In this document: positions 1-37,611 of the stretch, piece by piece | Numbering within the stretch: the stretch's first letter is position 1 | Layout of the letters: each line of letters begins with the position of its first letter | Translations under genes and position numbers: made by a program | Source of the DNA: Dictyostelium discoideum | Lineage: Eukaryota | Assembly: GCA_000004695.1 (NCBI GenBank) | Contig: CM000150.2 | Location: 64,001 to 128,000, forward strand | DNA length: 64,000 nucleotides | Direction: 5' to 3' | The notes under the pieces: model-generated | Seen by the model: only the letters and a program-made list of their open reading frames with translations | What the model was told of the DNA's origin: nothing | Database searches by the model: none

Positions 1-1
1 C

Positions 2-2041
2 CAAAATGGACAAGAAAATGATGATATTGAAATTTTGAAAGAAAAAGAAAATGGAAATTTAGGAAAAGAATTAAATAATTATGAAATTGGATTTTTAAAG
101 TTGGGTTTAGAAAATGCTAAATCGTTAAAATTTATGCAACAAATTTTGGATTTTTTTAAAAACAATATAAATGCAATTAATGAAATTAGATATACAACAA
201 AGTATATGGATTCTATATTTTTAGCAAATTTACCTATCGATGGTCACTTTTTGAGTTACAAATATTATGAAGAGTCAATTTTTTATTATGAAATTTGTTC
301 AGTTGTAAAATTATTAATTGAAAAAAAAAATTTTATAGAATATTTAGATTTCTCAAAAGACTATGAGCAAGGTATTTATAAAAATTATAAATCTGGAGAA
401 CAATTCAAAAAAATAAAAAATTCAATTTCAGATAAATTTATTTTATTAAGAATATTTAGTGACGGAATGAGTCATCAAGGTAGATCAGATTATACTATAA
501 TGGTGGATTTTGAAAATTATAATGGTCCATTTTTTAAAAATAACAAAATTGTTTTATTTATTGTTCCAAAAGAATGGTTTCACAATATACATCAAACAAT
601 TAAAAAATTATTTTCAGCGCAATTTAATAATAAATTAATAATTAAAGATAATAATGGAAATGATTATGAAATTATACCATATGGATTAACAATGGATATA
701 CCAGAATTTAGATCATCTTGTAGGATTAACCATTATAATTGCAATGAGTTCTCATGTCATACATGTGATAAACTAAGAGGTGTCGATTATTTATTAAAAG
801 AAGGAAATTATAGAAATCAAAAAGACATTATTGACTTTCACAATTCAAAACCAAATAAACAAGATTTTTTAAATCCTCAAAATAAAATTTTAAAATTAGA
901 AACAGAACAAAAAATGAAAAAAATCGGCATTACAGATTATGACAGATCTTGGGTAGAAAATTTAAAAATAAATTATTTGTACTTACAACCTGATATTTTA
1001 CACAACATATTATTGGGTATTGTACAATGGGTTTTAAATTATATTTTCAAAAAATATAAGGATCAAATTACAATTTTTATAAAAAAATTAAAAGAAGCTA
1101 AAATCATTCCAGATCATTTACCACCATCAGAATCTTTATTTGGTGTAAAAACAAGAAAAGGTAGAGAGAATAGAAGCATATTATATTATATTTTATTTTT
1201 TACTAAACCAAATGTATCAAATGATGATTTCTTATTATTAGAAGAAATGGTTCAGATTACTTTTTTATTATATCAAGATTCTTTCGACGAAGATGATTTG
1301 GATAAAATAAATTATTTAGTTAAAAATTTTAATAAAAAAATATTTATGATAATACCAAATGAACCAATCAACTTTCACCTTTTATTACATTATCCTTTAT
1401 ATATAAAAAATTGGGGTGCACCAAAATTTACATCAGCAGAGAGATTTGAAGCACAATTTAGTAAAATTAAAGACCTTTTGACAAACAATACAAACAACCA
1501 AGATCAACATAAATTTGAAAGAGTAACAAAAATATTAATGGCAACATTTTTAGATAATTTTAACAATCTAAAAGAAAAAGATGTTGACAATAATGATTTA
1601 ATTTTAGGGCAAATAATTAAAAAAAATGAAAATATTTATTTAAAAAATAATATTTTATCAGACATTAACTTGCATTACAAAAACATTGAAAATATTCAAT
1701 TTCATAAATCAATTAAAAATTTAAAAGAAATATATAATGTTGGTGATGGAATTGAAGTTGCCTCAGAAAATTCATTAACTGGACGATGGAGTGCAATAAT
1801 TATTGCTATTTGTTTAATAGAATTAAAAAATAAAAAAAGTGCACATTCTATTTATATACAATACTTTGATAAAGATACAGGTGATCAAAATAATAAGTAC
1901 CACTTTTTAAGAAAAAGCTTTTCAAGTATAGTATTTGATAACATAGTAAACACATTAATACCAATACAAATCGATTCGTCCAACTATCTTATAATTTATA
2001 AGTGCCATGACCAATTTTCAATAAGTAAAAAAAAAAAATGA
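2..2041 (+). CDS. Large ORF of the alpha DNA transposon (putative transposase-like protein). The frame is open back to the window start, so the N-terminus lies outside the window.
   Basis: The supplied 668-aa ORF is homologous along its length to the beta ORF at 4914-7109, for example VPFGLTMDIPEFR, CHTCDK/CHTCEK, DRSWVENL/DRGWVEPL and WGAPKFTSAE/WGAPKYTSAE. It has the Asn/Lys-rich low complexity typical of dictyostelids. Confidence 0.6.
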   Translation, partial: QNGQENDDIEILKEKENGNLGKELNNYEIGFLKLGLENAKSLKFMQQILDFFKNNINAINEIRYTTKYMDSIFLANLPIDGHFLSYKYYEESIFYYEICSVVKLLIEKKNFIEYLDFSKDYEQGIYKNYKSGEQFKKIKNSISDKFILLRIFSDGMSHQGRSDYTIMVDFENYNGPFFKNNKIVLFIVPKEWFHNIHQTIKKLFSAQFNNKLIIKDNNGNDYEIIPYGLTMDIPEFRSSCRINHYNCNEFSCHTCDKLRGVDYLLKEGNYRNQKDIIDFHNSKPNKQDFLNPQNKILKLETEQKMKKIGITDYDRSWVENLKINYLYLQPDILHNILLGIVQWVLNYIFKKYKDQITIFIKKLKEAKIIPDHLPPSESLFGVKTRKGRENRSILYYILFFTKPNVSNDDFLLLEEMVQITFLLYQDSFDEDDLDKINYLVKNFNKKIFMIIPNEPINFHLLLHYPLYIKNWGAPKFTSAERFEAQFSKIKDLLTNNTNNQDQHKFERVTKILMATFLDNFNNLKEKDVDNNDLILGQIIKKNENIYLKNNILSDINLHYKNIENIQFHKSIKNLKEIYNVGDGIEVASENSLTGRWSAIIIAICLIELKNKKSAHSIYIQYFDKDTGDQNNKYHFLRKSFSSIVFDNIVNTLIPIQIDSSNYLIIYKCHDQFSISKKKK

Positions 2042-2188
2042 AAAAAATTCGTTGAACTTATTTACATAACTTTTACATTTTTACGTAACTTTTTCTTTTT
2101 TTTTTTTTTTCTTTTTTTCCAATTTTCTTTTTTTTCGGTTGGAAATTATAGGATTTTAAAAAAAAATTAAAAAAATATTATAAAAAAA

Positions 2189-2476
2189 ATGACTCACAAT
2201 AATTCTGCATCATTTGAAACACCAAATAGAAGTGGTAATTATGTAAATAGATCATCTTTAACTTCACCAACATCACCAATAACACCAATACCATCTCTTA
2301 TTTTAAATCAAACTGATACCTCCATAGGTCCACAACGTACTGTTAGAAGACTACAAAGACCTCAAAGACCAAATGCAAGTCATCCACCAACAACAAATAT
2401 TGTAGAAAAAATATTGGTGTATGAAACATTGCACAGAAATTGTGTTTCTCAATACTATGCAACTGGTAAGGTAAGA

Positions 2477-2543
<67 letters not shown>

Positions 2544-3191
2544 AAGAGACTAATTAAATTAAATAAACAAAAATAATACATAAGATTTCCTCTCGTTTTA
2601 TTAGGACCTGTATATTAAATGCTGGCGGTACAAATTCAAATGAAAATAAAGTTGTTTTATCCAAATTGGTTAAATGGGTCAACAATAAACGTGGTAACAC
2701 ACGTATTAAAGCCCTAAATACCCTTAGACTTTTAGTTAGAAATAAAGTAGAACAGTTCAGCGAGTTGCTCTCTCAGGTTCCAGCATTAATGGAGTATGAA
2801 TCGGTATGTAAAATAAAAAAAAAAAATAAAAATAAAAAAATAAAAAAAAAAAAAAAATAAAAAAAAAAAAAAAAATAAATTATTAATAATTTGTTTTTTT
2901 AATTTTTTAATTATTATTTAGATAACTCCTTTTGATTTGGCCACTCTTATTATCGATACAGTTACCTTAGAAGCTTTTGACTCCGATCCTTTTGTAAAGT
3001 TCTTAGTGTCTCAATGCTTTACAATTGAAGAAAAAGAATGGTACAGCGGTTCCAAACCTCTTATTTCTTTAATAGTTAAAGCATTGCGTGGTGTTTCTCA
3101 AAAGTTCATTGACTCTCCTGATGAACTTACTTACACTGAAAAGGTTGCTTTTGAATTCACTTCAATACCTCTTTATGCTCCACTAAATTAA
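2189..3191 (+). CDS. Second gene of the alpha element, with about three exons (roughly 2189-2473, 2605-2808 and 2921-3191). The exact splice phases are unresolved.
   Basis: GTAAG and GTATGT donor motifs follow the coding blocks, and AT-rich introns end in TAG/AG. The last exon (…EEKEWYSGSKPLISLIVKAL…) is homologous to the last exon of the beta gene (…EEKHWYPDSVPLIKRLISIL…). The middle exon is homologous to the beta minus-copy exon at about 29520-29740. Confidence 0.45.
2484..2541. repeat. Poly(A) tract of about 58 nt inside the first intron of the alpha gene 2.
   Basis: Homopolymer run read directly in the sequence. Confidence 0.9.
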
Positions 3192-3394
3192 ATCGTTTAA
3201 ATAAAAAAAATTAATATGATTTCACATACTCAACTTTAATTTTTTCTTTTTTTTTTAAATCTTTATTTAATTTTTATTTTAAATTTTTATTTTTAATTTT
3301 TATTTTTAAAGTGATATTATTAATATATCTTATTAAGTTAACTTTATAATATAAATTTATAAATGCACTTTTAAATTGAATTTTATAAATATAA

Positions 3395-3790
3395 TTAATA
3401 AGAATACTTAATAATTGTACTTATAAAGAGTACATTATAATTATAATTAGTAATTACGCTTAATAAGTATACTTAATAATAATACTTAATAAGTATACTT
3501 ATTAAGTATACTTATTAATTATACTTAATAATTATACTTAATAAGTATACTTATTAAGTATACTTATTAATTATACTTAATAATTATACTTAATAAGTAT
3601 ACTAATTAATTATACTTAATAATTATACTTAATAATTATACTTAGTAAGTATACTTAATAAGTATACTTAATAAGTGTATTTAATAAGTATACTTAATAA
3701 GTATACTTTATAAGTATATTTAATAAGTATACTTAAAAAGTATACTTTATAATTATACTTATTAAGTACACTTTATAATAGTACTATTTA
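3395..3790. repeat. Array of the self-complementary 12-mer TAAGTATACTTA and variants, forming the subterminal repeats of the alpha element.
   Basis: The same array lies beside the other alpha-type termini at 8800-8930, 4400-4486 and 49510-49830. Confidence 0.8.
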
Positions 3791-3837
3791 CATTCCTACT
3801 TTAAAGATGCTTTTAAGTATTTTTTTTCGCCCCTGTG

Positions 3838-4192
3838 CAACACAACAAACAAATAACAACACAACAAACAAATAACACAATAACAACACAACAAACACAA
3901 TAACAACACAACAAACACAATAACAACACAATAACAAAACAACTTCAAAATAAATTACAACACAATAACAACACAATAACAACACTGTAGCCGAACACAA
4001 CAGGTACGACAACAACAATAATTACAACATAATAACAACACAACAACAGGTAGGACTGCAACATCAATAAAACAGCAACATCAATAGTACAACAACAGCA
4101 ATAATAAAGCAACAATAATAATACAACATCAATAATACAGCAACAGCAATAGAAATTACATAGCAATATCAATAATACAACAACCACAGAGT
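3838..4192. repeat. (CAA)n / AACACAACA-rich satellite-like array.
   Basis: Visible tandem repeats read directly. The overlapping Cys/Val-rich ORFs at 3788-4187 are artefacts of this repeat. Confidence 0.8.
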
Positions 4193-4284: not shown

Positions 4285-4395
4285 ACATGGTAATGCGATA
4301 AATTAATAAGGTAGAGGTCAAGGGTTCGATTCCCATATAAAACATTTCCACGGAACTTCAGGAAGGGAGGTCACGGTTCAATTCCCACATAAAAC
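4285..4395. other. Two tRNA-derived fragments with T-arm-like motifs GGTTCGATTCC and GGTTCAATTCC. They are likely remnants of tRNA genes or SINE-like sequence.
   Basis: The motifs are seen directly, but no complete cloverleaf can be folded. Confidence 0.25.
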
Positions 4396-4913
4396 ATAAA
4401 TATATATATTAATAAGTATACTTAAAAAGTAATACTTTATAAGTACACTTAATAAGTATACTTAATAAGTGTACTTATTAAGTAGTACCACAGCAAAGAA
4501 AAATGAAAAAAAAAAAAAAAATTTAATTATTTGTTTTGCATATTTATATTATAAGTATAAACATACATATAAAAAAAGATTTTTTATTTTTTATTTTTTA
4601 TAATTAATAAACAATTAACGAGTGCACAGGTATATTATTGCATTAGTGTAGTTTTACAATTAATTGGGCAGATTTTATAGTTTTTTTTTAATATTTTAAA
4701 AAGAAAAAGGTATAGACAGGGTCATAGGTTCCCCGTCATTTTTTGAAAATGGGGTATATCCCTCTAAATATAAAATTCTAAGTACTAAATCATATATCTA
4801 CTTGCTATAATGCTAAAATTTGAATAAAATGAAAAAAAAAAAAAAAAAAAACGTAAAAACTCGAGGAAAAAAAAAAAAAAAAAATTATTTTTAATTTCCA
4901 GCCAGCAAACAAA

Positions 4914-7109
4914 ATGAATTTAAATAACATATCATGCATTAATTGCAGAGAAAAATTAAAGAATTTTTAAAATATTATTATTCATTATATTATGCATAAA
5001 AATATATGTCCATTTTGTCTTGCATATTACCGTTCTTATAAACAATTTTATGATGTAAATGGACATTTCAACACCAAAAAATGTAAAAATGAACAAAATA
5101 AAATTATTACAAATAATCAAAAAAGAGATAGCTTTTATAAAAAATTAATGGATATTACTGGTGAAAAAATAAAATATCCAACAAATGATCCAGATGACCC
5201 ATGTAAACATTTATGTAACCAAAACCAAGATGAAATTTTTTATCAAGAAAATAATGAAAATAATGAAAATAATCAAACAATTGATAATGAAGAAAATCAT
5301 GATATAATTGGGTTGGTACATAGTGAAGATGAAAACAATGAAATTAGAATAGATGAAAATGAAGCAAACATTAATAATGAAAATAATGAAAATAATGAAA
5401 ATGAAAATGCTCAAAACGAACCAATAAATAATAATCTAAATAATAATTTAGATAATGAAAAATCAAAAAAAAAATTAAATGAAACTGAAATTGAATTTTT
5501 AATGTTGGGAATTGAAAACTCAATAAGTTTAAAGCTACTTGAAAAATTTAAAAGTTTTATTGACAAAAATAAAACCAATTTAAATCAAATAAGATACACA
5601 CCTCAATATATGGATAAATTATTTATTGAAGATTTTCAAATAAAAGGAGAAACATTTATAAATAAAAATTATGATCACTCAATTTTTTATTTTGAAATTA
5701 AAAAAGTATTAGAAACTTTATTAAATAAAAAGCAATTTTTTGAAAGAATAGATTTTGATACAGATTTTGAAACTGGAATTTATACAAATTATAAAAGTGG
5801 TCAACAATTTAAAGATTTAAAAAATAAAAATAAAAATAAAATTGTTTTACTTAGAATTTTCACTGATAGTATGCAGTGTCAAAACAAGAAAGATTATACT
5901 ATAATGCTGGATATAGAAAATTATATTGGAAATGAATTTAAAAATAATAAATTATTATTATTTGTAGTACCAAATGATTGGTTACTTAATTTTCATCAAA
6001 CAATTAGGGCATTGTTTTCATCTTTTATTGGTAATGGCTTTAATTTAATTATTGAAAATGAACAAATAGATGTTGTACCGTTTGGACTAACAATGGATAT
6101 TCCAGAATTTAGAGCATCGTGTAAACTTAATGGACATAATTCAAATGAATATGCATGTCACACATGTGAAAAACCAAGAGATGGTTTATTTATTTGCAAA
6201 TCAGGTACATTAAGAAAACAAGAAGATATTACAAATTTTCACTCCAACAAACCAAATTATGCTGAATTAAATGCTGATATAGAATTAAAAAAAGTATGGG
6301 AAAAAAAAGCAAAAGATATTGGTATCAAAGGTGTGGACAGAGGGTGGGTCGAACCCTTGTCTATTAATTATTTAAAAACACAACCAGACATATTACATAA
6401 TATTTTATTAGGTGTCGCGCAAAGATGTTTAAATTACATTTTTGATAAATATAAAAATAAAATTGCAAATTTTTTAAATAATTTAAAAAATGCAAAAATA
6501 ATAGATAACAAACCAAAACCTTCAATTTCACTATTTGCAAATAAAACAAGGAAAGGAAGAGAGAATAGATCAATATTATATTACCTTTTAATATCAATTA
6601 AAAATCAAATATCAAATGATGATTTTTTAATTATGGAACAATTAGTAACTATATGTTTTAAATTATATAGTGACTCTTTTGATGAAAATGATTTAAATTC
6701 ACTTCAAGTATTAATTGAATCGTTTAATGCAAAAGTAAATTTAATTACTGAAACAGAAATAATGAATTTCCACTTGTTGTTACATTATCCAATCTATATA
6801 AAAAATTGGGGAGCACCAAAATACACTTCAGCTGAAACTTTTGAAGCACAATTATCAAGAATTAAAAATTATTTAAAAAATAATACAAATAATAGGGATG
6901 AACAATATGAAAGGGTTACCAAATTAAACATGGTGAAATTTTTTAATTCAGTAGATAAATTAAAAAGTATTGAACCTGAAAGTACAGCATTAATTATTGG
7001 TTACAAAATAAAAAATCCAGATAATTTAGATAACATAAAAATTAAATTAGATTCATTATTTCAAAACTATAAAAATATAACTTTTCACTCATCAATTAAA
7101 AATAATTAA
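4914..7109 (+). CDS. Large ORF of the beta element (transposase-like, about 730 aa). This copy carries a nonsense codon (TAA) at 4968-4970.
   Basis: The inverted paralog at 32164..31142 reads straight through (…REKLKNFKNIIIHYIMHKNICPFCL). This copy has a T-to-A change that creates the TAA stop, and the supplied ORF 4992-7109 covers the rest. Confidence 0.6.
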
Positions 7110-7539
7110 GAAATATACAATGTTGGTGATGCAGTTGAAGTTGCATCAGATAATGAACTTTCAGGTAGATGGTCAGGTATTATCAATTCAATATCAATGA
7201 TTGAAATGGATGATAACATAATAAAACATGCAATATTATTAAATTATTTTGACAAATATGTTGGTGACCAATTTAATAAATACCAATAATTAAATTATAT
7301 TACATATGATAATATTCTAAATAATGTTATACCAATTCAAATTGATGATACCAATTACCTTATTATTTACAAATGCCACGATAAATTCTCGGCTTCAAAA
7401 AATAAAAAATCAAAAAATTAAAAACTTTTTTACATAATTTTTACATTGTTATGTAAATAATGATTTTTTTTTTTTAATTTTTTTTCATTTTCGGGCAGAC
7501 TGAAAAAGCGAATATGATTTCAATACATATTTTTTTAAA

Positions 7540-7920
7540 ATGAATTCATCTGCAAATTTTATAGCACCAAATGGTAATGTACCTGATTTTAACCAATCAC
7601 CAATCCAAAGAAGAACAAACAATAATATTTCTATCGGAGATGAATCATTTAATAATTTGTCAATAGGTAATGTATTAGGAAATGCAAATGCTCCAAACCC
7701 AATGGAAAACCAGAGAATAATTAGAAGAGTTCCAAGGCCAACTGTTCCACCAATCCAAGAAACAGTGCAAATAGCCACAAACCCACGTGTAACATACATA
7801 TTGGAATACGAAAGTCTTCAGAAAGTTTGTCAAAGTAAATACTATTCAGATGGCGATGTATGTTACCATTTGGTAATGAAATTGTGTGTATAAATTTATA
7901 TAATCAAAATTTACAAAATA

Positions 7921-7968
<48 letters not shown>

Positions 7969-8243
7969 AAATATAGTTTTCCCCTGCTTTACTTTCTCTT
8001 TTTCTCAGCCACATTAATTATGAAAATTATCAAAATGATATTTTCATAAAAGAGTTTGTTGACTCTTGTAAAACAGGTGAAGAGAAACACTGGTACCCAG
8101 ATTCAGTTCCTTTAATAAAGAGATTAATTTCAATATTAAATGATTTTAGTAGTAAATTTGACTCTAAGGCTAAAATGAGAAAAGATGCACAAGAAGCTTT
8201 TCAATTTCCTCATTCTGCACTTTACTTAAATTCTTCCCAATAA
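7540..8243 (+). pseudogene. Beta gene 2. Exon 1 is 7540-7857 with a GTATGT donor, and the last exon is about 7991-8243. The middle exon is missing because of an internal deletion of about 270 bp.
   Basis: Comparison with the inverted copy, which retains a middle exon at about 29520-29740 but lacks exon 1, and with the three-exon alpha gene. Confidence 0.45.
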
Positions 8244-8399
8244 AAGTTTTAAAATAATTTTTAAAATTTAAAAATAAATTTTATTATTAAAAAATAATAT
8301 ATCTGTGTATTTTATTGTTCACATAAAATTTTATTTCATACTATAGTTTTAAAATAATTTTTAAATTTTTTTTTTTATTTTTGTGGCATTATTAATAAG

Positions 8400-8799
8400 G
8401 TGCTTTTAAATGTAATTATTAATAATCTTTAAAATTCAATTTTTAAGGAGCTTTAAAATGTAATTATTAATATAATTTTTAATCATATTTTTAAGTAATT
8501 TTAAAGAGCATTATAAAGTTAATTTTAAAGGGCATTTTAAACTTAATTTTAAAGAGCATTATAAAGGTAATTTTAAAGGTCATTTTAAAGGTAATTTTCA
8601 AGGTCATTTTAAAGTTAATTTTAAAGGTGATTTTAAAGGTAATTTTAAAGGTGATTTTAAAGGTGATTTTAAAGGTGATTTTAAAGGTCATTTAAATAAT
8701 TGCTTTTAAATTAATTTTTAAGTGACTTTTTTATAGGACTTTAAATCCACTTTTAATTTAATTTAAAGTTGCTTTAAAGGTGTAATTTTCATCGCTGTG
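8400..8799 (+). repeat. Subterminal short tandem repeats (AATTTTAAAGGTGATTTTAAAGG…) of the beta and MITE right ends.
   Basis: The same repeats occur in inverted form at 28523-28900 and inside the MITE copies. The supplied 'MTFKITFKITFK' ORFs come from this repeat. Confidence 0.75.
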
Positions 8800-8976
8800 A
8801 CTTATAAAGTATATTTATTAAGTATACTTATTAATTGTACTTATTAAGTATTATTTATTAAGTATACTTATTAATTGTACTTATTAAGTATTACTTATTA
8901 AGTATACTTATTAATATATATTAAAAAGAGTACTTGGATTTAAAGGTGCTTTAAAGTGTTGATTTTCGCCGCTGTG
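8800..8976 (+). mobile_element. Alpha-type right-end fragment with a TAAGTATACTTA array and a terminus …TTTTCGCCGCTGTG.
   Basis: It has the same architecture as 3700-3837. Confidence 0.5.
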
Positions 8977-10541: not shown

Positions 10542-13500
10542 TTATGAAATTTGAACGACAGTATTTAAGAAACCACCAGATTTTTCACCAATGATTCTTT
10601 TATCGTAGAAGGTATCTACAGTATCGTTTGATTTCCAACGACCCATCTTCTTGACAACGTGGAACGGAACGTTATTTGACAACAGCAGAGAAGCCATAGC
10701 GGAACGGGTAGAGTGTGATTTGAACTTGACAATATCAATGCCTGACTTTGAGAGTGTTGATAATACAATTGAATTAATATCATTAACTTGGAGCGGTTCA
10801 CCCTCATTCTTAATAAAGACAGAGTCACCCGAATGGGGCTTTCTTCTTCCTTTAGAGGCTCTAAGGTATGTTGCAATGTGGCGAACAGGGCATACTTGAG
10901 AGTTTGTATCATCTAACGATGTTAATTCTAAGATTGAAACAACACCACTTCTTTGTTCTTTAGCATTAATAACTGGACCTTTGATTGAGTCAGGAGTAAT
11001 AATGAGACCCTTGAACGACCACTTCACCAAGTCTGATGATCTTGCTAAACCAAACATTTTACAGAGTACAAGTGTCTTGTTTAATAGCGCAGTGTATGTG
11101 TACTTGGGGATGACTTTGATAGTAGATAAGTGCTTGAATACTTGATTTGCATCCCATATCTCTTTATACTTTGCAGATGAAGGACGCAACTTGTGAATAC
11201 CAGTCATAATTCTTGTAATGAATGGATCATTAACAATATCAGTTTGATTCCTAAGGAGTAACAACTGATTCAACATAGATCGATGACCGTTAATTGTTGA
11301 GAAAGCTAACGGAGGTTTGTGTTTGAATAGATGTGTAAGATAATCTATGAAAACAACTAAGGTAATGTTTGCTGGATTCAAAGAGTTCAAAGTACAGAAA
11401 TTGCGGAATCTTGTATAACTGGAGCTATATACTTTGAGAGTTGAAGGTTCCCAAGACTTCATTAACAGCTCAGCTGTTTTTGTATTTGTTGTACGAGCAA
11501 AGGACATTACATGAGATTGGAAAGTTGAATAATCCCCAGCTTCCAACGTTGTTGAATCTGGATTGGTATCGACTCTACTGATTGTTTGGTCAATACTTCT
11601 TGGAATGTTCCCAGTACTTGAGGAAACATGTGACGATGATGACGAGGAACTTGTGCTTGAATCATCGGATACCAAGTTGCTGATCTCCAGATTGGGAAGA
11701 TCAGTATTATAGAAACCTTCTTCGAACTGGATGAGTTCATCTTCTCCAGGATAGAAGGCAAAAGAATGGGTGGTGGGAAGGCTAGACATTGCTTCCATTG
11801 ACTCCAATCGAGGTGGAGTGCATTCATTCTTATTGTTGAGTAGTTGTTCGTTTGATGGTTGAGGTGAGATGCGAACAGATCCATCTGTATTTGACCGAAT
11901 TGAAGTTGGATGCGATTGAACACTTCCTTCTTCAGTTGCCAGTTGTAACTCTTGATTACTCTGGTCGATGATTTGTGATTCATCTCTGAAAGACGACTGA
12001 GGTGGTCGGCTTTTACATTGAAGAATCCTGGAATATGCTCTCCAATTAAGTTTACTTTCTTCTTGAGGCATTGTTTCCAAAGTTGTTCGAACAGAACTGA
12101 GAGATCTTGTATTTGACCACCCTGGCGATTGATATAAGAGAGAGTGGTAGTGTTGTCGGTTTGAATCTTCAGCTTGCAGTTGTTCAGTTTCCGACATAGC
12201 GCTTGATAGGCCATCAGCAGCGCGAGCATTTCTCGACGATTTGACGACATGTTTGATTGAGTTGTTGACCACTGGAATGACCAAGTTTTGATTACCTTGT
12301 TTCCTTTCTTGAGAGTGGCACCTGCACCTGATTCCGAGGCATCGGTTGTAAGAACATAGTCGTAACTTGGAAACAGACTGATTTCTTTTCCATTCCATTG
12401 GTTTAGAACTGTTAACCAATGTGAAATCTCTGACTTGACGTCTTGAGGAATGGGGAATGATTGATCCCAATCTCCATTGGCTAGAGTCAGACAGTGAGAG
12501 TGAAACTTGTTTGTTCGACGAGTGTAAAGTCTGAAAGGGATGACTGCATCTTTCAGTGCGATTAGCTTTCCTTTTAAACCAGCAAGCTTTCTTGGGGAGC
12601 AAAAATCTAGTTTTAAAAAGTTTCTTATTTCTTTGATGACACTTTTCTTCTTTTCTTTGGGAACAAGAAGCTTCATTGATACCGAATCGATTTGTAATCC
12701 GAGAAACGTAATTGATTGAGTTGGTTCGAGAACACTCTTTTCTAGGTTTAACTTGAAACCTAGTTTGACAAGTAAGTCCATTGTCTTTTTGAGGTTGGAT
12801 AAACATTCTTCTTTTGTTGAACCTACGATTAATAGATCGTCCAAGTAAGCGATGACGGATACGTTGATATCTCTCAACATTCGAAGTACAGGTCTTAACA
12901 GCATTGTAAAGATACGAGGAGCTGTCGATAGCCCGAACGGCATTGTTTTCCAACGGTAGTGCGAACCTTTCCACACGAAGCGGAATAAGTCTCTGTATTG
13001 TGGATCTACTAATACGTGGAGGTAGGCTTTCTTGATATCGAGTTTTACCATGTAATAACCTTGTTTGACCATTGATGGTAGATTCTTGATTCCTTCCATC
13101 TTGAATGATTGGTTGTTGATGTAAGTGTTTAACCTTTTTAAATCTAGAACTGGACGATGTAGATTCGTTCCAGGTTTTGGAACCGTAAACACGTTGGAGT
13201 AAAAAACGCGCTTTGAATAACGGTTTGGAAGTACTTGTTCGATGGCATCGTCTAATAACAAGTCTTGTACTTCCTTTGTGATGCAATCTGATTTCGGACC
13301 CTCCGGAATTGAAATCGGAATTGGGTTTAGCATCGGCTTGAAATTTGGAAGCAGATGGATTTTTAATCCATTTACGACCTCTTGACAAAAGTTTGGAAGA
13401 CCCAATTCTTTCCAAACTTGTTTGTGGTGGAATAGACGTCCACCTACTGGTAAGTTTACTTCTTGTTCTTCTGAAAACGGTTGTTGGTACCGTTGGCAGA

Positions 13501-13619
13501 CTTGGTATTGTTGCTACCTGATGCAACATTACTTGGTGATCCATTGAAGTTGTTAGATCGGCCATTACTCCCACTACTGGATTTACTATTACTACTGTTT
13601 CCTGTAGTGTTATTACCAC
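10542..13619 (-). CDS. DIRS-1 ORF3 long frame overlapping ORF2. The C-terminal part (about 10542-11800) is the tyrosine recombinase.
   Basis: The C-terminal …HSTRSAMASLLL… region is integrase-like. The whole frame is open as supplied. Confidence 0.7.
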   Translation of the reverse strand: MVITLQETVVIVNPVVGVMADLTTSMDHQVMLHQVATIPSLPTVPTTVFRRTRSKLTSRWTSIPPQTSLERIGSSKLLSRGRKWIKNPSASKFQADAKPNSDFNSGGSEIRLHHKGSTRLVIRRCHRTSTSKPLFKARFLLQRVYGSKTWNESTSSSSRFKKVKHLHQQPIIQDGRNQESTINGQTRLLHGKTRYQESLPPRISRSTIQRLIPLRVERFALPLENNAVRAIDSSSYLYNAVKTCTSNVERYQRIRHRLLGRSINRRFNKRRMFIQPQKDNGLTCQTRFQVKPRKECSRTNSINYVSRITNRFGINEASCSQRKEEKCHQRNKKLFKTRFLLPKKACWFKRKANRTERCSHPFQTLHSSNKQVSLSLSDSSQWRLGSIIPHSSRRQVRDFTLVNSSKPMEWKRNQSVSKLRLCSYNRCLGIRCRCHSQERKQGNQNLVIPVVNNSIKHVVKSSRNARAADGLSSAMSETEQLQAEDSNRQHYHSLLYQSPGWSNTRSLSSVRTTLETMPQEESKLNWRAYSRILQCKSRPPQSSFRDESQIIDQSNQELQLATEEGSVQSHPTSIRSNTDGSVRISPQPSNEQLLNNKNECTPPRLESMEAMSSLPTTHSFAFYPGEDELIQFEEGFYNTDLPNLEISNLVSDDSSTSSSSSSSHVSSSTGNIPRSIDQTISRVDTNPDSTTLEAGDYSTFQSHVMSFARTTNTKTAELLMKSWEPSTLKVYSSSYTRFRNFCTLNSLNPANITLVVFIDYLTHLFKHKPPLAFSTINGHRSMLNQLLLLRNQTDIVNDPFITRIMTGIHKLRPSSAKYKEIWDANQVFKHLSTIKVIPKYTYTALLNKTLVLCKMFGLARSSDLVKWSFKGLIITPDSIKGPVINAKEQRSGVVSILELTSLDDTNSQVCPVRHIATYLRASKGRRKPHSGDSVFIKNEGEPLQVNDINSIVLSTLSKSGIDIVKFKSHSTRSAMASLLLSNNVPFHVVKKMGRWKSNDTVDTFYDKRIIGEKSGGFLNTVVQIS
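11507..13405 (-). CDS. DIRS-1 ORF2 reverse transcriptase / RNase H.
   Basis: The RT motif VIAYLDDLLIVG is present. Confidence 0.85.
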   Translation of the reverse strand: MGLPNFCQEVVNGLKIHLLPNFKPMLNPIPISIPEGPKSDCITKEVQDLLLDDAIEQVLPNRYSKRVFYSNVFTVPKPGTNLHRPVLDLKRLNTYINNQSFKMEGIKNLPSMVKQGYYMVKLDIKKAYLHVLVDPQYRDLFRFVWKGSHYRWKTMPFGLSTAPRIFTMLLRPVLRMLRDINVSVIAYLDDLLIVGSTKEECLSNLKKTMDLLVKLGFKLNLEKSVLEPTQSITFLGLQIDSVSMKLLVPKEKKKSVIKEIRNFLKLDFCSPRKLAGLKGKLIALKDAVIPFRLYTRRTNKFHSHCLTLANGDWDQSFPIPQDVKSEISHWLTVLNQWNGKEISLFPSYDYVLTTDASESGAGATLKKGNKVIKTWSFQWSTTQSNMSSNRREMLALLMAYQALCRKLNNCKLKIQTDNTTTLSYINRQGGQIQDLSVLFEQLWKQCLKKKVNLIGEHIPGFFNVKADHLSRLSEMNHKSSTRVIKSYNWQLKKEVFNRIQLQFGQIQMDLFASHLNHQTNNYSTIRMNALHLDWSQWKQCLAFPPPILLPSILEKMNSSSSKKVSIILIFPIWRSATWYPMIQAQVPRHHRHMFPQVLGTFQEVLTKQSVESIPIQIQQRWKLGIIQLSNLM

Positions 13620-22900: not shown

Positions 22901-25292
22901 CTTCCTTTGTGATGCAATCTGATTTCGGACCCTCTGGAATTGAAATCGGAATTGGGTTTAGCATCGGCTTGAAATTTGGAAGCAGATGGACTTTTAATCC
23001 ATTTACAACCTCTTGACAAAAGTTTAGAAGACCCAATTCTTTCCAAACTTGTTTGTGGTGGAACAGACGTCCACCTACTGGTAAGTTTACTTCTTGTTCT
23101 TCTGAAAACGGTTGTTGGTACCGTTGGCAGACTTTGTATTGTTGCTACCTGATGCAACAATACTTGGTGATCCATTGAAGTTGTTAGATCGGCCATTACT
23201 CCCACTACTGGATTTACCATTACTACTGTTTCCTGTAGTGTTATTACCACTTGAGTTAACTGATTTCTTGACATTGGACTTGGAATGATAATTCAATTTT
23301 AACAATGATTGTTTAGCTTCGTTGTTCTTTCTGATTGACTTGGCTAGCTTTCTTACACGTTCAGTTTCAGTTTCATCAAACATCTTTGGTGTATCCTTGA
23401 TCTTAATTCGTAAGAGTACTTCAGAACCATAAATTTCTTTAGCGATGTTGTTACGACGGACACGACTAAGCGATGCTTGAGCATTAACGGCTAAGACGAT
23501 TGCACTCTGAGTTAAATAACTAATAAGTTCTAAATCGACATTAGAGCTATCAGATGATAACATACTTGACATGAGAAGCAAAGGTTTTAAGCTATCGTTG
23601 ATTCGCTTTTCGACAATCAACAAGTCAGTATCATTGTTCTTGACGTTGGATGATACAGTAATACCTTCAGGTGTACCGAATGGAGCGACATTCACTTGGA
23701 AGTTAGATGGAAAGTTGAATACTTTATTCAATTCGGATATCTCATCTTTCTTGAGGATACATTCTTCTTCGACGAATAAACCTTGATTGTTAACCATATG
23801 TTTGTACTGACCAAGTAAAGTATCGGATAATTGATAATCGGTTGGAAAATCGACATTCACAGCAAAGAAAAAACCACCTTTAAATTCGCTTTAAATTAAA
23901 TTTAAATTTGCTTTAAAGTCCTGAATTAAAGCAATTTTAAAGGTAATTTTAAAGGTAATTTTTAAAGGTTACTTAAAATCACCTTAAAAAATTACATTAA
24001 AATTACCTTTTTAATGGCTTTAAAAGCGAGGTCCTGAGTTCGAATCCGTTATTTAACGGATAAATTTTTTAAAATTTTTTTTTTAATTTTTCAAAAATTA
24101 CCCAAAAGGGATTCGATCCCCCGACCCTCTATCAAAGGGTAGTCTCATCAACCATTACACCATTTGATTGCTTTGATGAAAAATTTAAAAATGATAGAAT
24201 ATTTTATCCCCATTTTTTTGTGCTAAAATTAGATCTTTTTTATTAAAAACCTTAAATTTATGTTTAAAGGAAATTTAAATTCACTTTAAATCTACTTTTA
24301 ATCTACTTTAAATCCTATTTAAAATTAATTTAAAATAAATTTTAAAGGTATTTTTAAATATCTTAAAAATTATCTTAAAAATTACCTTAAAAATCACCTT
24401 TAAAATCACCTTTAAAATCACCTTTAAAATTGCTTAAAAATTTATTTTAAAGCAAATTTTAAAGGCATTTTTAAATATCTTAAAAATTACCTTAAAAATT
24501 ACCTTAAAAATGAATTTTTTAAACGCGGCTTTAAATTCAATTTAAATCCAATTTAAATCAACTTTTCTTTAAATTTGCTTTAAAGGTGCATTTTTCTTTG
24601 CTGTGTTGTTACTTGATTCATCTTCACTTTGTTCATTCTCAGTGTCAGAGTCATCATGAGAAGGTTGGCTACGTGAATTGGTATTAGATGAGAACATAGG
24701 TTCTTTCATGAATCTAGTAAAGGCTAAGGAAAGGTTGTTGATTTGATCCTCCATTGACTTCATTCTTAAATCAAAGGATTCAGCACTATTAGAGGCAGAG
24801 GTATTGCTACTAGAGGCTTCATTATTATTAACAGTGGTAGACATATTTTATTGTTGATATCTAAAATTATAATATGAGAAAAATAATAATATTAAAAATT
24901 AATAAAGAGAAATAATTATTTGTATAAAATTTGTGTGTGTGTGTATCTTAAATATATATAGGAGGAATTCCCAAATAAAATAAATCGAATTGTTTTAGTT
25001 TTTAGTGCCACTATTTATACGTTTTTATTTTCTTAAAAATTTCGCAAAACTCAAAAAAATAAGAGTTTTCGACCCTTCACAACTTTGTGCATAGTGTCGG
25101 TTCGAAATTTTTCAGTTTTTCGACCTTACACAATGATCGCGTCATTGTGCCGGTTCGAAATTTTTACTTTTCTTTCGAAAATTTTTTATTCTTCGAATGT
25201 TCTAGAACATTCTAAAAAATTATCTTAAATATTTGGGAAATTCAAATAAATAAATGTTATTCATAATATATATATATATATGATAATATAAA
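19986..25292 (-). mobile_element. DIRS-1 copy C with frameshifts in ORF2 and ORF3. A 748-bp TIR element is inserted in ORF1.
   Basis: ORF3 pieces are 20173-21429 and 21607-23274, and ORF2 is 21708-23036. ORF1 is split into 23087-23857 and 24606-24844. The ITRs lie at 19986-20170 and 24960-25292. Confidence 0.8.
23858..24605 (+). mobile_element. MITE-like non-autonomous TIR element. Its TIRs are CACAGCAAAGAAAAAACCACCTTTAAA … TTTAAAGGTGCATTTTTCTTTGCTGTG. It has subterminal TTTAAAGG repeats and a tRNA-like core, and is flanked by a TT target duplication.
   Basis: It interrupts DIRS ORF1 exactly. The flanks read …CGACATT|…|TTGTTACT, against the intact CGACATTGTTACT at 14240. Other copies lie at 36130-36761 and 37612-38644. 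Confidence 0.75.
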
Positions 25293-26640: not shown

Positions 26641-26697
26641 TAAATGCCGTTCGGGTTATCGACAGCTCCTCGTATCTTTACAATGCTGTTACAAAGA

Positions 26698-28522
26698 GAT
26701 AGCTTTTATAAAAAATTAATGGATATTACTGGTGAAAAAATAAAATATCCAACAAATGATCCAGATGACCCATGTAAACATTTATGTAACCAAAACCAGA
26801 TGAAATTTTTTATCAAGAAAATAATGAAAATAATGAAAATAATCAAACAATTGATAATGAAGAAAATCATGATACAATTGGGTTGGTACATAGTGAAGAT
26901 GAAAACAATGAAATTATAATGGATCAAAATGAAGCAAACATTAATAATGAAAATAATGAAAATAATGAAAATGAAAATTGTCAAAATGAACCAATAAATA
27001 ATAATCAAAATAATAATATAGATATTGAAAAATCAAAAAAAAAATTAAATGAAACTGAAATTGAATTTTTAATGTTGGGAATTGAAAACTCAATAAGTTT
27101 AAAGCTTCTTGAAAAATTTAAAAGTTTTATTGACAAAAATAAAACTAATTTAAATCAAATAAGATACACACCTCAATATATTGATAAATTATTTATGGAA
27201 GATTTTCAAATAAAAGGAGAAACATTTATAAATAAAAATTATGATCACTCAATTTTTTATTTTGAAATTAAAAAAGTATTAGAAACTTTATTAAATAAAA
27301 AGCAATTTTTTGAAAGAATAGATTTTGATACAGATTTTGAAACTGGAATTTATACAAATTATAAAAGTGGTCAACAATTTAAAGATTTAAAAAATAAAAA
27401 TAAAAATAAAATTGTTTTACTTAGAATATTCACTGATAGTATGCAGTGTCAAAACAAGAAAGATTATACTATAATGCTGGATACAGAAAATTATATTGGA
27501 AATTAATTTAAAAATAATAAATTATTATTATTTGTAGTACCAAATGATTGGTTACTTAATTTCCATCAAACAATTAGGGCATTGTTTTCATCTTTTATTG
27601 GTAATGGCTTTAATTTAATTATTGAAAATGAGCAAATAGATGTTGTACCGTTTGGACTGACAATGGATATTCCAGAATTTAGAGCATCGTGTAAACTTAA
27701 TGGACATAATCCAAATGAATATGCATGTCACACATGTGACAAACCAAGATATGGTTTATTTATTTGCAAATCAGGTACATTAAGAAAACAAGAAGATATT
27801 ACAAATTTTCACTCCACCAAACCAAATTATGCTGAACTAAATGCTGATATAGAATTAAAAAAAGTATGGGAAAAAAAAGCAAAAGATATTGGTATCAAAG
27901 GTGTGGACAGAGGGTGGGTCGAACCCTTGTCCATTAATTATTTAAAAACACAGCCGGACATTTTACATAATATTTTATAAGGTGTCGCACAAAGGTGTTT
28001 AAATTACATTTTTGATAAATATAAAAATAAAATTGCAAATTTTTTAAATAATTTAAAAAATGCAAAAATAATAGATAACAAACCAAAACCAGCAATTTCA
28101 CTATTTGCAAATAAAACAAGGAAAGGAAGAGATAATAGATCAATATTATATTACCTTTTGATGTCAATTAAAAATCAAATATCAAATGATGATTTTTTAA
28201 TTATGGAATAATTAGTAACTATATGTTTTAAATTATACAGTGACTCTTTTGATGAAAATGATTTAAATTCACTTCAAGAATTAATTGAAAGTAAATTTAA
28301 TTACTGAAACAGAAATAATGAATTTCCACTTGTAATTACATTATCCAATTTATATAAAAAATTTAGGTGCTCCAAAATACACTTCAGCTGAAACTTTTGA
28401 AGCACAATTATCAAGAATTAAAAATTATTTAAATAATAATACAAATAATAGGGATGAACAATATGAAAGGGTTTCCAAAGAAAACATGGTGAAATTTTTT
28501 AATTCAGTAGATAAATTAAAAA
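26698..28522 (+). mobile_element. Beta DNA-transposon fragment, 5'-truncated, with multiple stop codons.
   Basis: Colinear with 5130-6960. ORF pieces lie at 26883-27506 and 27582-27980. Confidence 0.7.
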
Positions 28523-29421
28523 CACAGCGATGAAAGTTACACCTTTAAAGCAACTTTAAATTAAATTAAAGTGGATTTAAAGTCCTATAAAAAAGTCACT
28601 TAAAAATTAATTTAAAAGCAATTTTTTAAATGACCTTTAAAATCACCTTTAAAATCACCTTTAAAATTACCTTTAAAATCACCTTTAAAATTAACTTTAA
28701 AATGACCTTGAAAATTACCTTTATAATGCTCTTTAAAATTAACTTTAAAATGCCCTTTAAAATTACCTTTATAATGCTCTTTAAAATTACCTTTAAAATG
28801 ACCTTTAAAATGACCTTTAAAATTACCTTTATAATTTTTTTTAAAATTAAGTTTAAAATGCCCTTTAAAATTAACTTTATAATGCTCTTTAAAATTACTT
28901 AAAAATATGATTAAAAACTATATTAATAATTACATTTTAAATCTCCTTAAAAATTGAATTTTAAAGTTTATTAATAATTACATTTAAAAGCACCTTATTA
29001 ATAATGCAAAAATAAATAAAAAAATTTTAAAAATTATTTTAAAACTATAGTATGAAATAAAATTTTATGTGAACAATAAAATACACAGATATATTATTTT
29101 TTAATAATAAAATTTATTTTTAAATTTTAAAAATTATTTAAAACTTTTATTGGGAAGAATTTAAGTAAAGTGCAGAATGAGGAAATTGAAATGCTTCTTG
29201 TGCATCTTTTCTCATTTTAGCCTTAGAGTCAAATTTACTACTAAAATCATTTAATATTGAAATTAATCTCTTTATTAAAGGAACTGAATCTGGGTACCAG
29301 TGTTTCTCTTCACCTGTTTAACAAGAGTCAACAAACTCTTTTATGAAAATATCATTTTGATAATTTTCATAATTAATGTGGCTGAGAAAAAGAGAAAGTA
29401 AAGCAGGGGAAAACTGTATTT

Positions 29422-29471
<50 letters not shown>

Positions 29472-29749
29472 TATTTTGTAAATTTTGATTATATTAATTT
29501 ATACACACAATTTCATTACCAAAAAATACTTGGCTATCGGAAATATAAACTTTAAGATTGTGGTTTTTTTCACCTTTTGAATAAATGGCTAAACTGTCAG
29601 CTACTTTTGTTCTTGTGTTACTATCCTTATTACTTACCCATTTCGTTAACCTTGCAAAAATATTTTGACTGGTACAATCTTCGTTACTACCACCAGCTTG
29701 TTTAATTATTCCAGTAATAAAGAAATTTGAAACCTATTTATTTAAATTA

Positions 29750-29786
<37 letters not shown>

Positions 29787-32603
29787 ATTAATCTGGTAAC
29801 ATACATCGCCATCTGAAAAGTATTTACTTTGACAAACTTTCTGAAGACTTTCGTATTCCAATATGTATTGAAATCATTTTCGCTTTTTCAGTCTGCCCGA
29901 AAATGAAAAAAAATTAAAAAAAATCATTTTTTACATAAAAATGTAAAAATTATGTAAAAAAGTTTTTAATTTTTTGATTTATTATTTTTTGAAGCCGAGA
30001 TTTTATCGTGGCATTTGTAAATTATAAGGTAATTGGTATCATCAATTTGAATTGGTAAAACATTATTTAGAATATTATCATATGTAATATAATTTAATTC
30101 ATTTGAAAGAAAATGGTATTTGTTAAATTGGTCACCAACATATTTGTCAAATAATTTAATAATATTGCATGTTTTATTATGTTATCATCCATTTCAATCA
30201 TTGATATTGAATTGATAATACCTGACCATCTACCTGAAAGTTCATTATCTGATGCAACTTCAACTGCATCACCAACATTGTATATTTCTTTATTATTTTT
30301 AATTGATGAGTGATTATTTATATTTTTATAATTTTGAAATAATGAATCTAATTTAATTTTTATGTTATCTAAATTATCTGGATTTTTTATTTTGTTACCA
30401 ATAATTAAAGCTGTACTTTCAATTTCAATACTTTTTAATTTATCTACTGATTTAAAAAATTTCACCATGTTTAATTTGGTAACCCTTTCATATTGTTCGT
30501 CCCTATTATTTGTATTATTATTTAAATAATTTTTAATTCTTGAGAATTGTGCTTCAAAAGTTTCAGCTGAAGTGTATTTTGGTGCACCCCAATTTTTTAT
30601 ATAAATTGGATAATGTAACAACAAGTGGAAATTCATTATTTCTGTTACTTTAAACATCTTTGCGCGACACCTAATAAAATATGTAAAATGTCTGGTTGTG
30701 TTTTTAAATAATTAATGGACAAGGGTTCGACCCACCCTCTGTCCACACCTTTGATACCAATATCTTTTGCTTTTTTTCCCATACTTTTTTTAATTCTATA
30801 TCAGCATTTAGTTCAGCATAATTTGGTTTGGTGGAGTGAAAATTTGTAATATCTTCTTGTTTTCTTAATGTACCTGATTTGCAAATAAATAAACCATATC
30901 TTGGTTTGTCACATGTGTGACATGCATATTCATTTGGATTATGTCCATTAAGTTTACACGATGCTCTAAATTCTGGAATATCCATTGTCAGTCCAAACGG
31001 TACAACATCTATTTGCTCATTTTCAATAATTAAATTAAAGCCATTACCAATAAAAGATGAAAACAATGCCCTAATTGTTTGATGGAAATTAAGTAACCAA
31101 TCATTTGGTACTACAAATAATAATAATTTATTATTTTTAAATTAATTTCCAATATAATTTTCTGTATCCAGCATTATAGTATAATCTTTCTTGTTTTGAC
31201 ACTGCATACTATCAGTGAATATTCTAAGTAAAACAATTTTATTTTTATTTTTATTTTTTAAATCTTTAAATTGTTGACCACTTTTATAATTTGTATAAAT
31301 TCCAGTTTCAAAATCTGTATCAAAATCTATTCTTTCAAAAAATTGCTTTTTATTTAATAAAGTTTCTAATACTTTTTTAATTTCAAAATAAAAAATTGAG
31401 TGATCATAATTTTTATTTATAAATGTTTCTCCTTTTATTTGAAAATCTTCCATAAATAATTTATCAATATATTGAGGTGTGTATCTTATTTGATTTAAAT
31501 TAGTTTTATTTTTGTCAATAAAACTTTTAAATTTTTCAAGAAGCTTTAAACTTATTGAGTTTTCAATTCCCAACATTAAAAATTCAATTTCAGTTCCATT
31601 TAATTTTTTTTTTGATTTTTCATTATCTAAATTATTATTAAGATTATTATTTATTGGTTCGTTTTGAGCATTTTCATTTTCATTATTTTCATTATTTTCA
31701 TTATTAATGTTTGCTTCATTTTCATCTATTCTAATTTCATTGTTTTCATCTTCACTATGTACCAACCCAATTATATCATGATTTTCTTCATTATCAATTG
31801 TTTGATTATTTTCATTATTTTCATTATTTTCTTGATAAAAAATTTCATCTTGGTTTTGGTTACATAAATGTTTACATGGGTCATCTGGATCATTTGTTGG
31901 ATATTTTATTTTTTCACCAGTAATATCCACTAATTTTTTATAAAAGCTATCTCTTTTTTGATTATTTGTAATAATTTTATTTTGTTCATTTTTACATTTT
32001 TTGGTGTTGAAATGTCCATTTACATCATAAAATTGTTTATAAGAACGGTAATATGCAAGACAAAATGGACATATATTTTTATGCATAATATAATGAATAA
32101 TAATATTTTTAAAATTCTTTAATTTTTCTCTGCAATTAATGCATGACATGTTATTTAAATTCATTTTGTTTGCTGGCTGGAAATTAAAAATAATATTTTT
32201 TTTTTTTTTTTCCTCGAGTTTTTACGTTTTTTTTTTTTTTTTTTTTTCATTTTATTCAAATTTTAGCATTTTAGCAAGTAGATATATGATTTAGTACTTA
32301 GAATTTTATATTTAGAGGGATATACCCCATTTTCAAAAAATGACCGGGAACCTATGACCCTGTCTATACCTTTTTCTTTTTAAAATATTAAAAAAAAAAA
32401 CTATAAAATCTGCCCAATTTATTGTAAAACTACACTAATGCAATAATATACATGTGCACTCGTTAATTGTTTATTAATTATAAAAAATAAAAAATAAAAA
32501 ATCTTTTTTTATATGTATGTTTATACTTATAATATAAATATGAAAAACAAATAATTAAATTTTTTTTTTTTTTTTTTTGATATTTTTCGCTTTTTGAAAT
32601 GAA
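28523..32603 (-). mobile_element. Beta DNA transposon, inverted near-full-length copy. It includes the right-end subterminal repeats (28523-28900).
   Basis: It is the reverse complement of 4489-8799. The large ORF is in pieces at 32164..31142, 31066..30704 and 30657..30094. Gene 2 retains its middle and last exons but lacks exon 1. The terminal sequence at about 32580-32603 is degenerate. Confidence 0.65.
31142..32164 (-). pseudogene. Beta large-ORF N-terminal portion. The N-terminus (MNLNNMSCINCREKLKNFKNIII…) is intact and the downstream part is frameshifted.
   Basis: Supplied ORF, homologous to 4914-5940. Confidence 0.6.
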
Positions 32604-32829
32604 AAGTAAAATTTAAAATAACATAATATAAAACCCAAGGCAATTGAAACACTTATTTATTATTAATTAATAAAAATAATAATAATAGAATTCAATTGCC
32701 ACTGAAACAAATAAATAAAGAATTAAAATTACTTTGGTTATCTTTTTAGTTTTTTTTTTTTTTTAATTTTCATAATTTTTTTTTTTTTCTTTTATTTTCT
32801 TATTTTTTTTTTTTTTTTAATAAATTTGA

Positions 32830-33135
32830 AATAAATAGTGTAAAAATTGATTTGAAATGTATTTAAAATGCATTTAAAATGTATTTTAAAAAATATAATT
32901 AATAAAAGCTTAAAAAAGGATTAATAAGTAATTTTAAATTACATTAAAAATAACTTTTTTAAATTTATTATAAAGTGATTAAAACATTATTTAAAAACCG
33001 CTTTATAATAAATTTAAAAGGTCATTTTTAATGTAATTTTAAATGACCTTAAAAATATCTTTAAAATTACCTTTTTAAAAAGCAAATTTTAAGCCAATTT
33101 AAAGTTGATTTAATGGTGTAATTTTCATCGCTGTG
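32830..33135 (+). mobile_element. MITE/beta-type right-end fragment with TTTAAAGG repeats and a terminus …TCATCGCTGTG at 33135.
   Basis: It has the same terminus as 8799. Confidence 0.55.
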
Positions 33136-37247: not shown

Positions 37248-37406
37248 AATTGGGTGACACCCATTAGAATTTCACGTAGCTCTATAGCTATTACAGTCAA
37301 TACTAACACTTCACAAAAAGGCCTGGTTAACCCCTACTGATTGAACTTAGGTTGTCTTAGAGTTCCTACCAGGAAAACTGCAACTGATATCATTGTTTGG
37401 TGATTA

Positions 37407-37439
37407 CAAAAAAGACCAGTGTTATTGGCTGGTCTTTTT
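37407..37439. terminator. Bidirectional intrinsic-terminator-like hairpin AAAAAAGACCAG-TGTTATTGG-CTGGTCTTTTT. A mirrored copy lies in the palindrome arm at about 37905-37940.
   Basis: An 8-bp stem flanked by an A-run and a T-run. Confidence 0.45.
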
Positions 37440-37611
37440 GAGTTATACGATACCGTTCTCTTTACGATAACGGAATATTTTTGATCTATCGATATTAAGC
37501 ATTTCTGCAATTACTTAATCGCTATTACCTCACCAAGCAGTTCGATAATCATGGCAATATGTTCTGGGTTAAGTTGTGTCTTTTGGCTTTTACTTAATGC
37601 TGATCTACCAA

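Follow-up and report, generated by a model that had tools for sequence, protein, structure and literature searches.

What kind of element occupies positions 4489-8799 of a 64,000-nucleotide stretch of Dictyostelium discoideum DNA (assembly GCA_000004695.1, contig CM000150.2, positions 64,001 to 128,000 of the forward strand; hereafter the window), and what is the small spliced gene that follows its large open reading frame (ORF)? An initial annotation had described here two diverged families of DNA transposon, alpha and beta, both built from these two genes, with beta copies that had decayed in place. The element at 4489-8799 is very probably a dead beta copy of a cut-and-paste DNA transposon of the DDT (Dictyostelium DNA Transposons) type, within the CACTA/Mirage/Chapaev (CMC) superfamily. 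DDT elements were reportedly catalogued in 2001, as DDT-A, DDT-B and DDT-S. The raw sequence is explained in this way as catalogued repeats, and the anatomy given at first reading was accurate; with the element itself already known, its superfamily placement, its 2-bp target duplication, the selection on its partner gene and its possible BAH-like tail are modest refinements.

As judged from its sequence, the product of the large gene is a DDE transposase bearing the CMC signature. An exhaustive hidden Markov model (HMM) search with a profile of both families returned 75 matches, of which about 50 weaker ones, with E values from 3e-8 to 1e-3, lie beyond the Dictyostelium copies; these span the region from DILHN to WGAPKYTSAE, and their named sources are insect proteins. 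When ten of the HMM matches were scanned against Pfam, three passed the gathering score of Transposase_21, one of them passing that of DUF1258 as well, and another showed DUF4218 below threshold. The DUF1258 family is one from C. elegans. Set against 15 of the relatives in hhalign, the DDT alignment scored a probability of 99.6% (E 6e-25) over 477 columns, and in the joint alignment D310, D387, C407, C410, R426, H612, H616, F635 and E636 (P0003 numbering) are invariant, with H487 nearly so. The zinc-binding signature of the superfamily is present in alpha and beta alike, as CHTC, DILHN and NFHLLLH. The pattern D, D, C(2)C, LH, H(3-4)H, E has been published for both CACTA/Mirage/Chapaev and Transib/RAG1 (PMC4079192; PMC12730594), and DDT shares with the CMC superfamily this DDE triad with its C(2)C, LH and H(3-4)H elements, together with CAC...GTG ends and a short target duplication.

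The ends were compared across the window and four further loci, L001-L004, the first three of which come from other D. discoideum assemblies and hold beta (L001, L003) or alpha (L002) elements. All of them read CACAG[C/G]...[C/G]CTGTG. Nine elements have both ends, and eight of these carry matching 2-bp flanks (AC, TT, AA, TT, TA, TG, TT and TT); matching 3-bp flanks were found in none of the nine. A chance match is expected at about 0.11 per element at this base composition, so that eight of nine would arise by chance with an estimated probability of about 1e-7. The pair 37612/38644 was left out of this count, position 37612 falling in a palindrome with 326-nt arms. CAC...GTG ends and a duplication of 2-5 bp are hallmarks of the CMC group (PMC4079192; PMC12730594), and 2-bp duplications have been reported in some animal CACTA elements (PMC6004678). 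Collectively, the catalytic signature, the CAC...GTG ends and the 2-bp duplication identify DDT as a CMC element. A 2-bp duplication defines Mirage in the Repbase classification, and on this trait DDT behaves closer to Mirage or to animal CACTA than to plant CACTA, which has a 3-bp duplication and CACTA ends. From CACTA/En-Spm in the strict sense, DDT differs in ending with CACAG rather than CACTA, in duplicating 2 bp rather than 3 bp, and in having a second protein unrelated to TnpA (it has no Pfam match or outside homologue). Of the families that the initial annotation had proposed for an HMM search, CACTA, within CMC, was the right one. PIF/Harbinger, with a DDE_Tnp_4-type transposase and a Myb/SANT partner, was also among them and was rejected, neither protein giving such a Pfam match and the relatives being CMC.

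Likeness to the DDT elements extends to the same host, residence in DIRS-1/skipper centromeric clusters, terminal inverted repeats and short non-autonomous derivatives. With a G+C content of 22-39%, the window is strongly AT-rich; the close protein homologues all come from D. discoideum or D. cf. discoideum, and the neighbourhood of 4489-8799 holds several DIRS-1-type elements, with reverse transcriptase and tyrosine recombinase, as well as one long terminal repeat (LTR) element. In D. discoideum centromeres DDT elements make up about 20%, and the DIRS-1- and LTR-rich surroundings match the centromeric repeat clusters of this species (PMC2665215). The setting is like a centromeric transposon graveyard.

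A number of points weigh against the placement of this element. The window elements are most likely of the same family as DDT, a fit made by host, habitat and description. The transposase has no direct Pfam match, Transposase_21 and DUF4218 included (E up to 1-5); this is treated here as a limit of sensitivity and not as the failure of a defining trait. The DDT family profile had no Pfam match either; protein and profile alike lacked a match among the sequences of the PDB, apart from a chance one of the profile to a lectin, and the nearest CMC relatives are no more than 14-18% identical, which together with the missing Pfam match sets DDT apart from the rest of the superfamily. One of the nine elements with both ends, the inverted beta copy, has unlike flanks (AA and TG). 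The AlphaFold models are poor, with a predicted local distance difference test (pLDDT) score of 39 for the transposase (13 sequences) and 47 for the small protein, so the fold is not confirmed by them; the alignments for both proteins hold just two subfamilies. The two-gene, splicing and mobility readings are drawn from sequence throughout, and the role of the small protein, which lacks any recognisable domain or relative outside D. discoideum, is a guess.

A 2017 review described the transposases of D. discoideum DNA transposons as lacking significant similarity to known ones (PMC5633606), a statement that the sequence searches made here contradict. No paper assigning DDT to EnSpm or CMC was found in the literature searched, in which Repbase was not covered. 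Placement in CMC with explicit catalytic residues provides direct targets for mutagenesis and extends the superfamily, with a 2-bp duplication, to an amoebozoan lineage.

The motifs noted at first reading in the large ORF lie in the beta copy at 6156-6173 (CHTCEK), 6336-6359 (DRGWVEPL) and 6807-6836 (WGAPKYTSAE), and have alpha counterparts in CHTCDK, DRSWVENL and WGAPKFTSAE. Homology between alpha and beta was also correctly seen to cover both genes, and it includes the intergenic spacer; the alpha copy shares with beta 52% identity at the protein level and about 67% at the DNA level. The estimate of about 700 residues for the large ORF was too short, since comparison with homologues gives a complete protein of 818-831 aa. 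The 705-aa ORF of the plus-strand copy, at 4992-7109, is simply the stretch left between two of three in-frame stops (4968-4970, 7107-7109 and 7287-7289), the last of which has a 12-bp deletion next to it. The nonsense codon reported for this copy is therefore real, and was undercounted. At the N-terminus, the C2H2-spaced zinc fingers are presumed from their sequence to be a DNA-binding module; the region gave only a weak Pfam match, to ADD_ATRX (E 0.0013).

Copies in the window were mapped by self-comparison and by alignment to an intact beta copy of 5157 bp (L001 4979-10135). The plus-strand copy has lost about 570 bp of the left subterminal region that the inverted copy and L001 keep, and as a result only 17 nt of its left terminal repeat survive. 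It also lacks about 270 bp (the remainder of intron 1 and all but the last 15 nt of the middle exon) between 7868 and 7869, which the inverted copy retains at 29524-29793, in agreement with the middle-exon loss already recorded. The inverted copy in turn has no counterpart of 7533-7794. Its loss of exon 1 by deletion between direct repeats had been recognised; the repeat is 9 bp long (ATACATATT) and not the shorter ACATAT first given. This copy has further lesions: about 308 bp are missing within the transposase gene, there are frameshifts, and exon 3 of the small gene holds a stop codon. Its limit, previously set at 32575, moves to the terminus found at 33135. The copy-specific defects were therefore real and more numerous than first thought. 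In aligned parts the two copies are 98% identical and have not one lesion in common, which supports decay after insertion, as had been proposed. The beta copies have decayed independently by AAA-to-TAA nonsense changes, short-repeat deletions and nested insertions.

The small gene that follows the transposase was predicted at first reading to be spliced, and in the alpha copy it has an intact GT..AG three-exon frame (2189-2470, 2585-2803 and 2922-3191 on the plus strand) for a protein of 256 aa, which matches the AX4 gene model DDB_G0267230 from end to end at 99% identity. An intact transposase gene is followed by an intact small gene in L001 (beta, small protein of 276 aa) and in L002 (alpha, 257 aa), intact two-gene copies occur in L001 and L003 (beta) and in L002 (alpha), and at least six transposase and small-gene pairs bear consecutive locus tags; the copies from other assemblies and the paired tags uphold the two-gene architecture in both families. 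The small proteins of alpha and beta align throughout the three exons, and the two introns, both of phase 0, fall at identical positions of the alignment. The alpha copy of the window and that of L002 have conserved splice sites, with exons of 282/285, 219/219 and 270/270 nt and introns of 114/75 and 118/74 nt. Between lineages, the ratio of nonsynonymous to synonymous substitution (dN/dS, Nei-Gojobori) came to 0.30 (alpha) and 0.32 (beta) in the small gene and to 0.21 and 0.25 in the transposase; purifying selection acts on both genes. The conserved frame and splice sites, the presence across copies of both families and the dN/dS of about 0.3 mark this as a genuine gene of the element, kept under constraint.

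Directly after the transposase stop lies a nearly invariant 28-nt intergenic motif, TTTACATAATTTTTACATTGTTATGTAA / TTTACATAAYTTTTACATTKTTAYGTAA, at 7429-7456 on the plus strand and at about 2061-2090 in alpha, with equivalents in L001 and L002; the conservation was seen in an alignment of five copies of both families, although their coding DNA is no more than about 67% identical. The motif could serve the small gene as a promoter or as a processing signal. Its end is a TTAYGTAA half-palindrome, like a bZIP-type site.

What the small protein does can be approached through the mechanism that the CMC family suggests. The transposase would bind the ends of the element, probably through its N-terminal zinc fingers, and the DDE core would then excise the element and reinsert it with a 2-bp stagger; terminal and subterminal repeats would be recognised by the zinc fingers, the small protein or both. 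Under this scheme the small protein would be an accessory factor, perhaps one that binds the subterminal repeats; both these repeats and the fast-evolving small protein differ between alpha and beta. Plant CACTA elements likewise carry arrays of subterminal repeats along with a second gene. In maize En/Spm the TnpD transposase is accompanied by TnpA, a protein that binds subterminal repeats. DDT is like En/Spm in combining a large transposase with a smaller spliced product and in having arrays of short repeats inside its ends that differ between related families, but its small gene is a separate downstream unit and not an alternative splice form, and its product has no similarity to TnpA. By this analogy the small protein may be an accessory transposition factor comparable to TnpA, a proposal that falls somewhat short of an even chance.

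A rival view, which is doubtful but has to be taken seriously, places the small gene outside the transposition machinery, as a passenger that would be either a captured or co-opted host gene or else a regulator or targeting factor (a repressor, for instance, or a centromeric tether). In its favour, a Pfam scan of the small protein found no domain, whether DNA-binding or transposase-associated, and a word-indexed homologue search with an alpha and beta profile gave no relatives outside D. discoideum DDT copies. The protein also evolves faster than the transposase, with 33-36% identity between the families against about 50%, and its AlphaFold model (15 sequences) predicts, at low confidence, an all-helical fold behind a disordered basic N-terminus, with which Foldseek returned no match at an E value below 1, only 14-3-3 and homeodomain noise. 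Against this view, the listed homologues are all from D. discoideum or D. cf. discoideum, and at least six of them have a DDT transposase gene at the preceding locus tag. Position, orientation and both intron sites are also kept in two families about 50% diverged, and purifying selection on the gene is about as strong as that on the transposase; two-protein systems with subterminal repeats are, moreover, typical of CACTA.

A bolder version of the accessory-factor reading adds a function for the end of the transposase. In the otherwise poor AlphaFold model, the last 110 or so residues form a beta domain with a local pLDDT of 50-76, and a Foldseek search of this domain against the PDB returned almost only BAH domains (E 0.013-0.2, probability 0.9-1.0), namely those of ZMET2, AIPP3, DNMT1, SHL/EBS, PBRM1, BAHCC1, TNRC18 and Rsc2. 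Pfam gave no BAH match when the domain was scanned by itself, and hhalign found no significant similarity between it and the C-termini of the insect CMC relatives. That this tail of about 110 residues is a BAH-like reader of histone marks which steers integration to centromeric heterochromatin, with the small protein, restricted to this lineage, as a new type of accessory factor binding the family-specific subterminal repeats, is unlikely, although the chance is not negligible. If true, the reader would account for the accumulation of DDT together with DIRS-1 at D. discoideum centromeres, and DDT would be a CMC transposon targeted to chromatin and equipped with a novel partner protein. The conserved, selected partner gene and the possible BAH-like tail both offer testable handles on the way in which DNA transposons build Dictyostelium centromeres.

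For the transposase, the alternative to CMC proper is the Transib/RAG1 lineage, and this is very improbable. The CACAG ends resemble the heptamer CACAGTG, and the layout D...D-C(2)C...H(3)H...E is shared, with the CxxC about 20 residues after the second D and H(3)H before the E; the joint profile, searched against the PDB, even reached RAG1 structures (E 0.0013, 20 bits). However, the target duplication is 2 bp rather than the 5 bp said to be typical of Transib, DDT has no RAG2-like partner, and the significant relatives carry Transposase_21, DUF1258 or DUF4218 and not RAG1 domains. The RAG1 match itself is weak and local, taking in only the second D and C(2)C, and these motifs are common to the whole CMC/Transib group (PMC12730594), so that such a touch is expected for the wider clade. 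Transib, which the initial annotation had also named, was accordingly rejected as the home family and is only a distant cousin. That the two ORFs are a single gene split by mutation, or spliced into one transposase product, is scarcely credible: the spacer is merely about 120-150 bp, both genes lie on the same strand and the products of maize En/Spm are said to share exons, but the stop codon, the conserved spacer and a separate ATG are kept in both families wherever both genes are open (for the alpha copy of the window, in its in-window part), the null hhalign result for the small protein against CMC transposases leads us to reject a split gene, the large ORF alone already matches CMC transposases in length, and annotators of independent assemblies call two genes.

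The features of the CMC-type element at 4489-8799 and of its relatives in the window are collected in Table 1.

Table 1. Coordinates, within the window, of the beta element, its genes and repeats, and related copies.
Feature	Position	Strand	Details and basis
Beta copy, defective (main finding)	4489-8799	+	Termini CACAGC...GCTGTG; aligns with L001 4979-10135 except for two internal deletions
Left terminal inverted repeat remnant	4489-4505	+	CACAGCAAAGAAAAATG
Transposase pseudogene	4914-7421	+	Full product about 830 aa; translation, comparison with P0001-P0004
Zinc finger, then second Cys/His cluster	4935-4997	+	C2H2 spacing C-x2-C-x12-H-x3-H; pattern match; conserved in alpha and beta
DDE core	5865-6845	+	D 5865-5867; D 6096-6098; C(2)C 6156-6167; LH 6393-6398; H(3)H 6771-6785; E 6843-6845
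C-terminal beta-rich domain, possibly BAH-like	7110-7418	+	EIYNVGDAVEVAS..GRWSGII..
Small gene, exon 1	7540-7857	+	Donor GTATGT at 7858; homologous to L001 8619-8948 and to alpha exon 1
Small gene, middle exon, last 15 nt only	7869-7883	+	Self-comparison
Small gene, exon 3 with stop codon	7977-8244	+	
Right subterminal tandem repeats of beta	8391-8731	+	Core 12-bp unit ATTTTAAAGGTA x17 at 8487-8693; Tandem Repeats Finder
Alpha copy, left side cut by window edge	1-3837	+	Transposase open 2-2041
Alpha-type element end	8800-8976	-	13-bp array and terminus CACAGCGGCGAAAA on minus strand; 89% identity to alpha_ref 1-177
Non-autonomous 748-bp element	23858-24605	+	Beta-type terminal repeats, TT target duplication
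Beta fragment with stops and frameshifts	26674-28522	+	Equals 5122-6966 of the plus-strand copy; self-comparison
Beta copy with both termini, inverted	28523-33135	-	Self-comparison, L001 comparison
Beta transposase remnant, two pieces split by DIRS-1 fragment	45266-46356 and 49137-49460 (span 45266-49460)	-	
Second alpha-type end	49461 onward		

The beta copy opens with CACAGCAAAG and closes with CATCGCTGTG, and it is itself a nested insertion, lying within the 13-bp array of an alpha-type end whose matching array part is found at 4402-4488; its 2-bp duplication, AC, is present at 4487-4488 and 8800-8801. Arrays that match its right-hand repeats recur at the ends of the inverted copy in the self-comparison. 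In alpha, the subterminal array consists of a 13-bp unit repeated 30 times at 3385-3778, and the right terminus, ...CCCCTGTG, is reached at 3837.

The inverted beta copy adjoins, at its 28522/28523 terminus, the plus-strand beta fragment at the equivalent of 6966. The flank at 33135/33136 does not carry on that fragment and, as the 2-bp flanks are also unlike, the arrangement points to a nested insertion followed by another rearrangement. The DIRS-1 fragment that divides the beta transposase remnant, at 46357-49136, has a 673-aa ORF that shares a segment, LLMKSWEPSTLKVYSSSY...FSTING, with the DIRS-1 ORF at 10542-13619.

Besides the 748-bp element of the window, non-autonomous elements of 700-760 bp occur at L001 2776-3474 and at L004 3043-3801 and 3841-4599. 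These short elements have beta-type terminal repeats and TT duplications, consist for the most part of subterminal repeats, and are probably of the DDT-S type.

Directly after the right terminus of the alpha copy, a long imperfect repeat array of the CAACA/ACAAT type covers 3838-4180 and is likely to be the insertion context of that copy. Just to the left of the array that flanks the beta copy, at 4300-4390, are two tRNA-like strings, GGTTCGATTCCC and GGTTCAATTCCCAC; a tRNA gene at this site was ruled out, ARAGORN having found none. The alpha copy of L002 (2434-10226) is 7.8 kb long and has about 3.5 kb before the transposase ATG, including two small called genes, where beta has about 1 kb; this longer 5' part may consist either of nested insertions or of extra alpha content.

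Finally, 37335-38016 is a near-perfect palindrome with 326-nt arms that are 98% complementary and a 30-nt spacer. It is centred some 64 bp within a DDT-type end, which means that about 277 nt of flank have been duplicated, inverted, along with the end of the element. The palindrome could be the scar of a hairpin-capped break repair or of aberrant transposition, and a similar inverted duplicate of flank and end is found in L001 (2776 and 10558).

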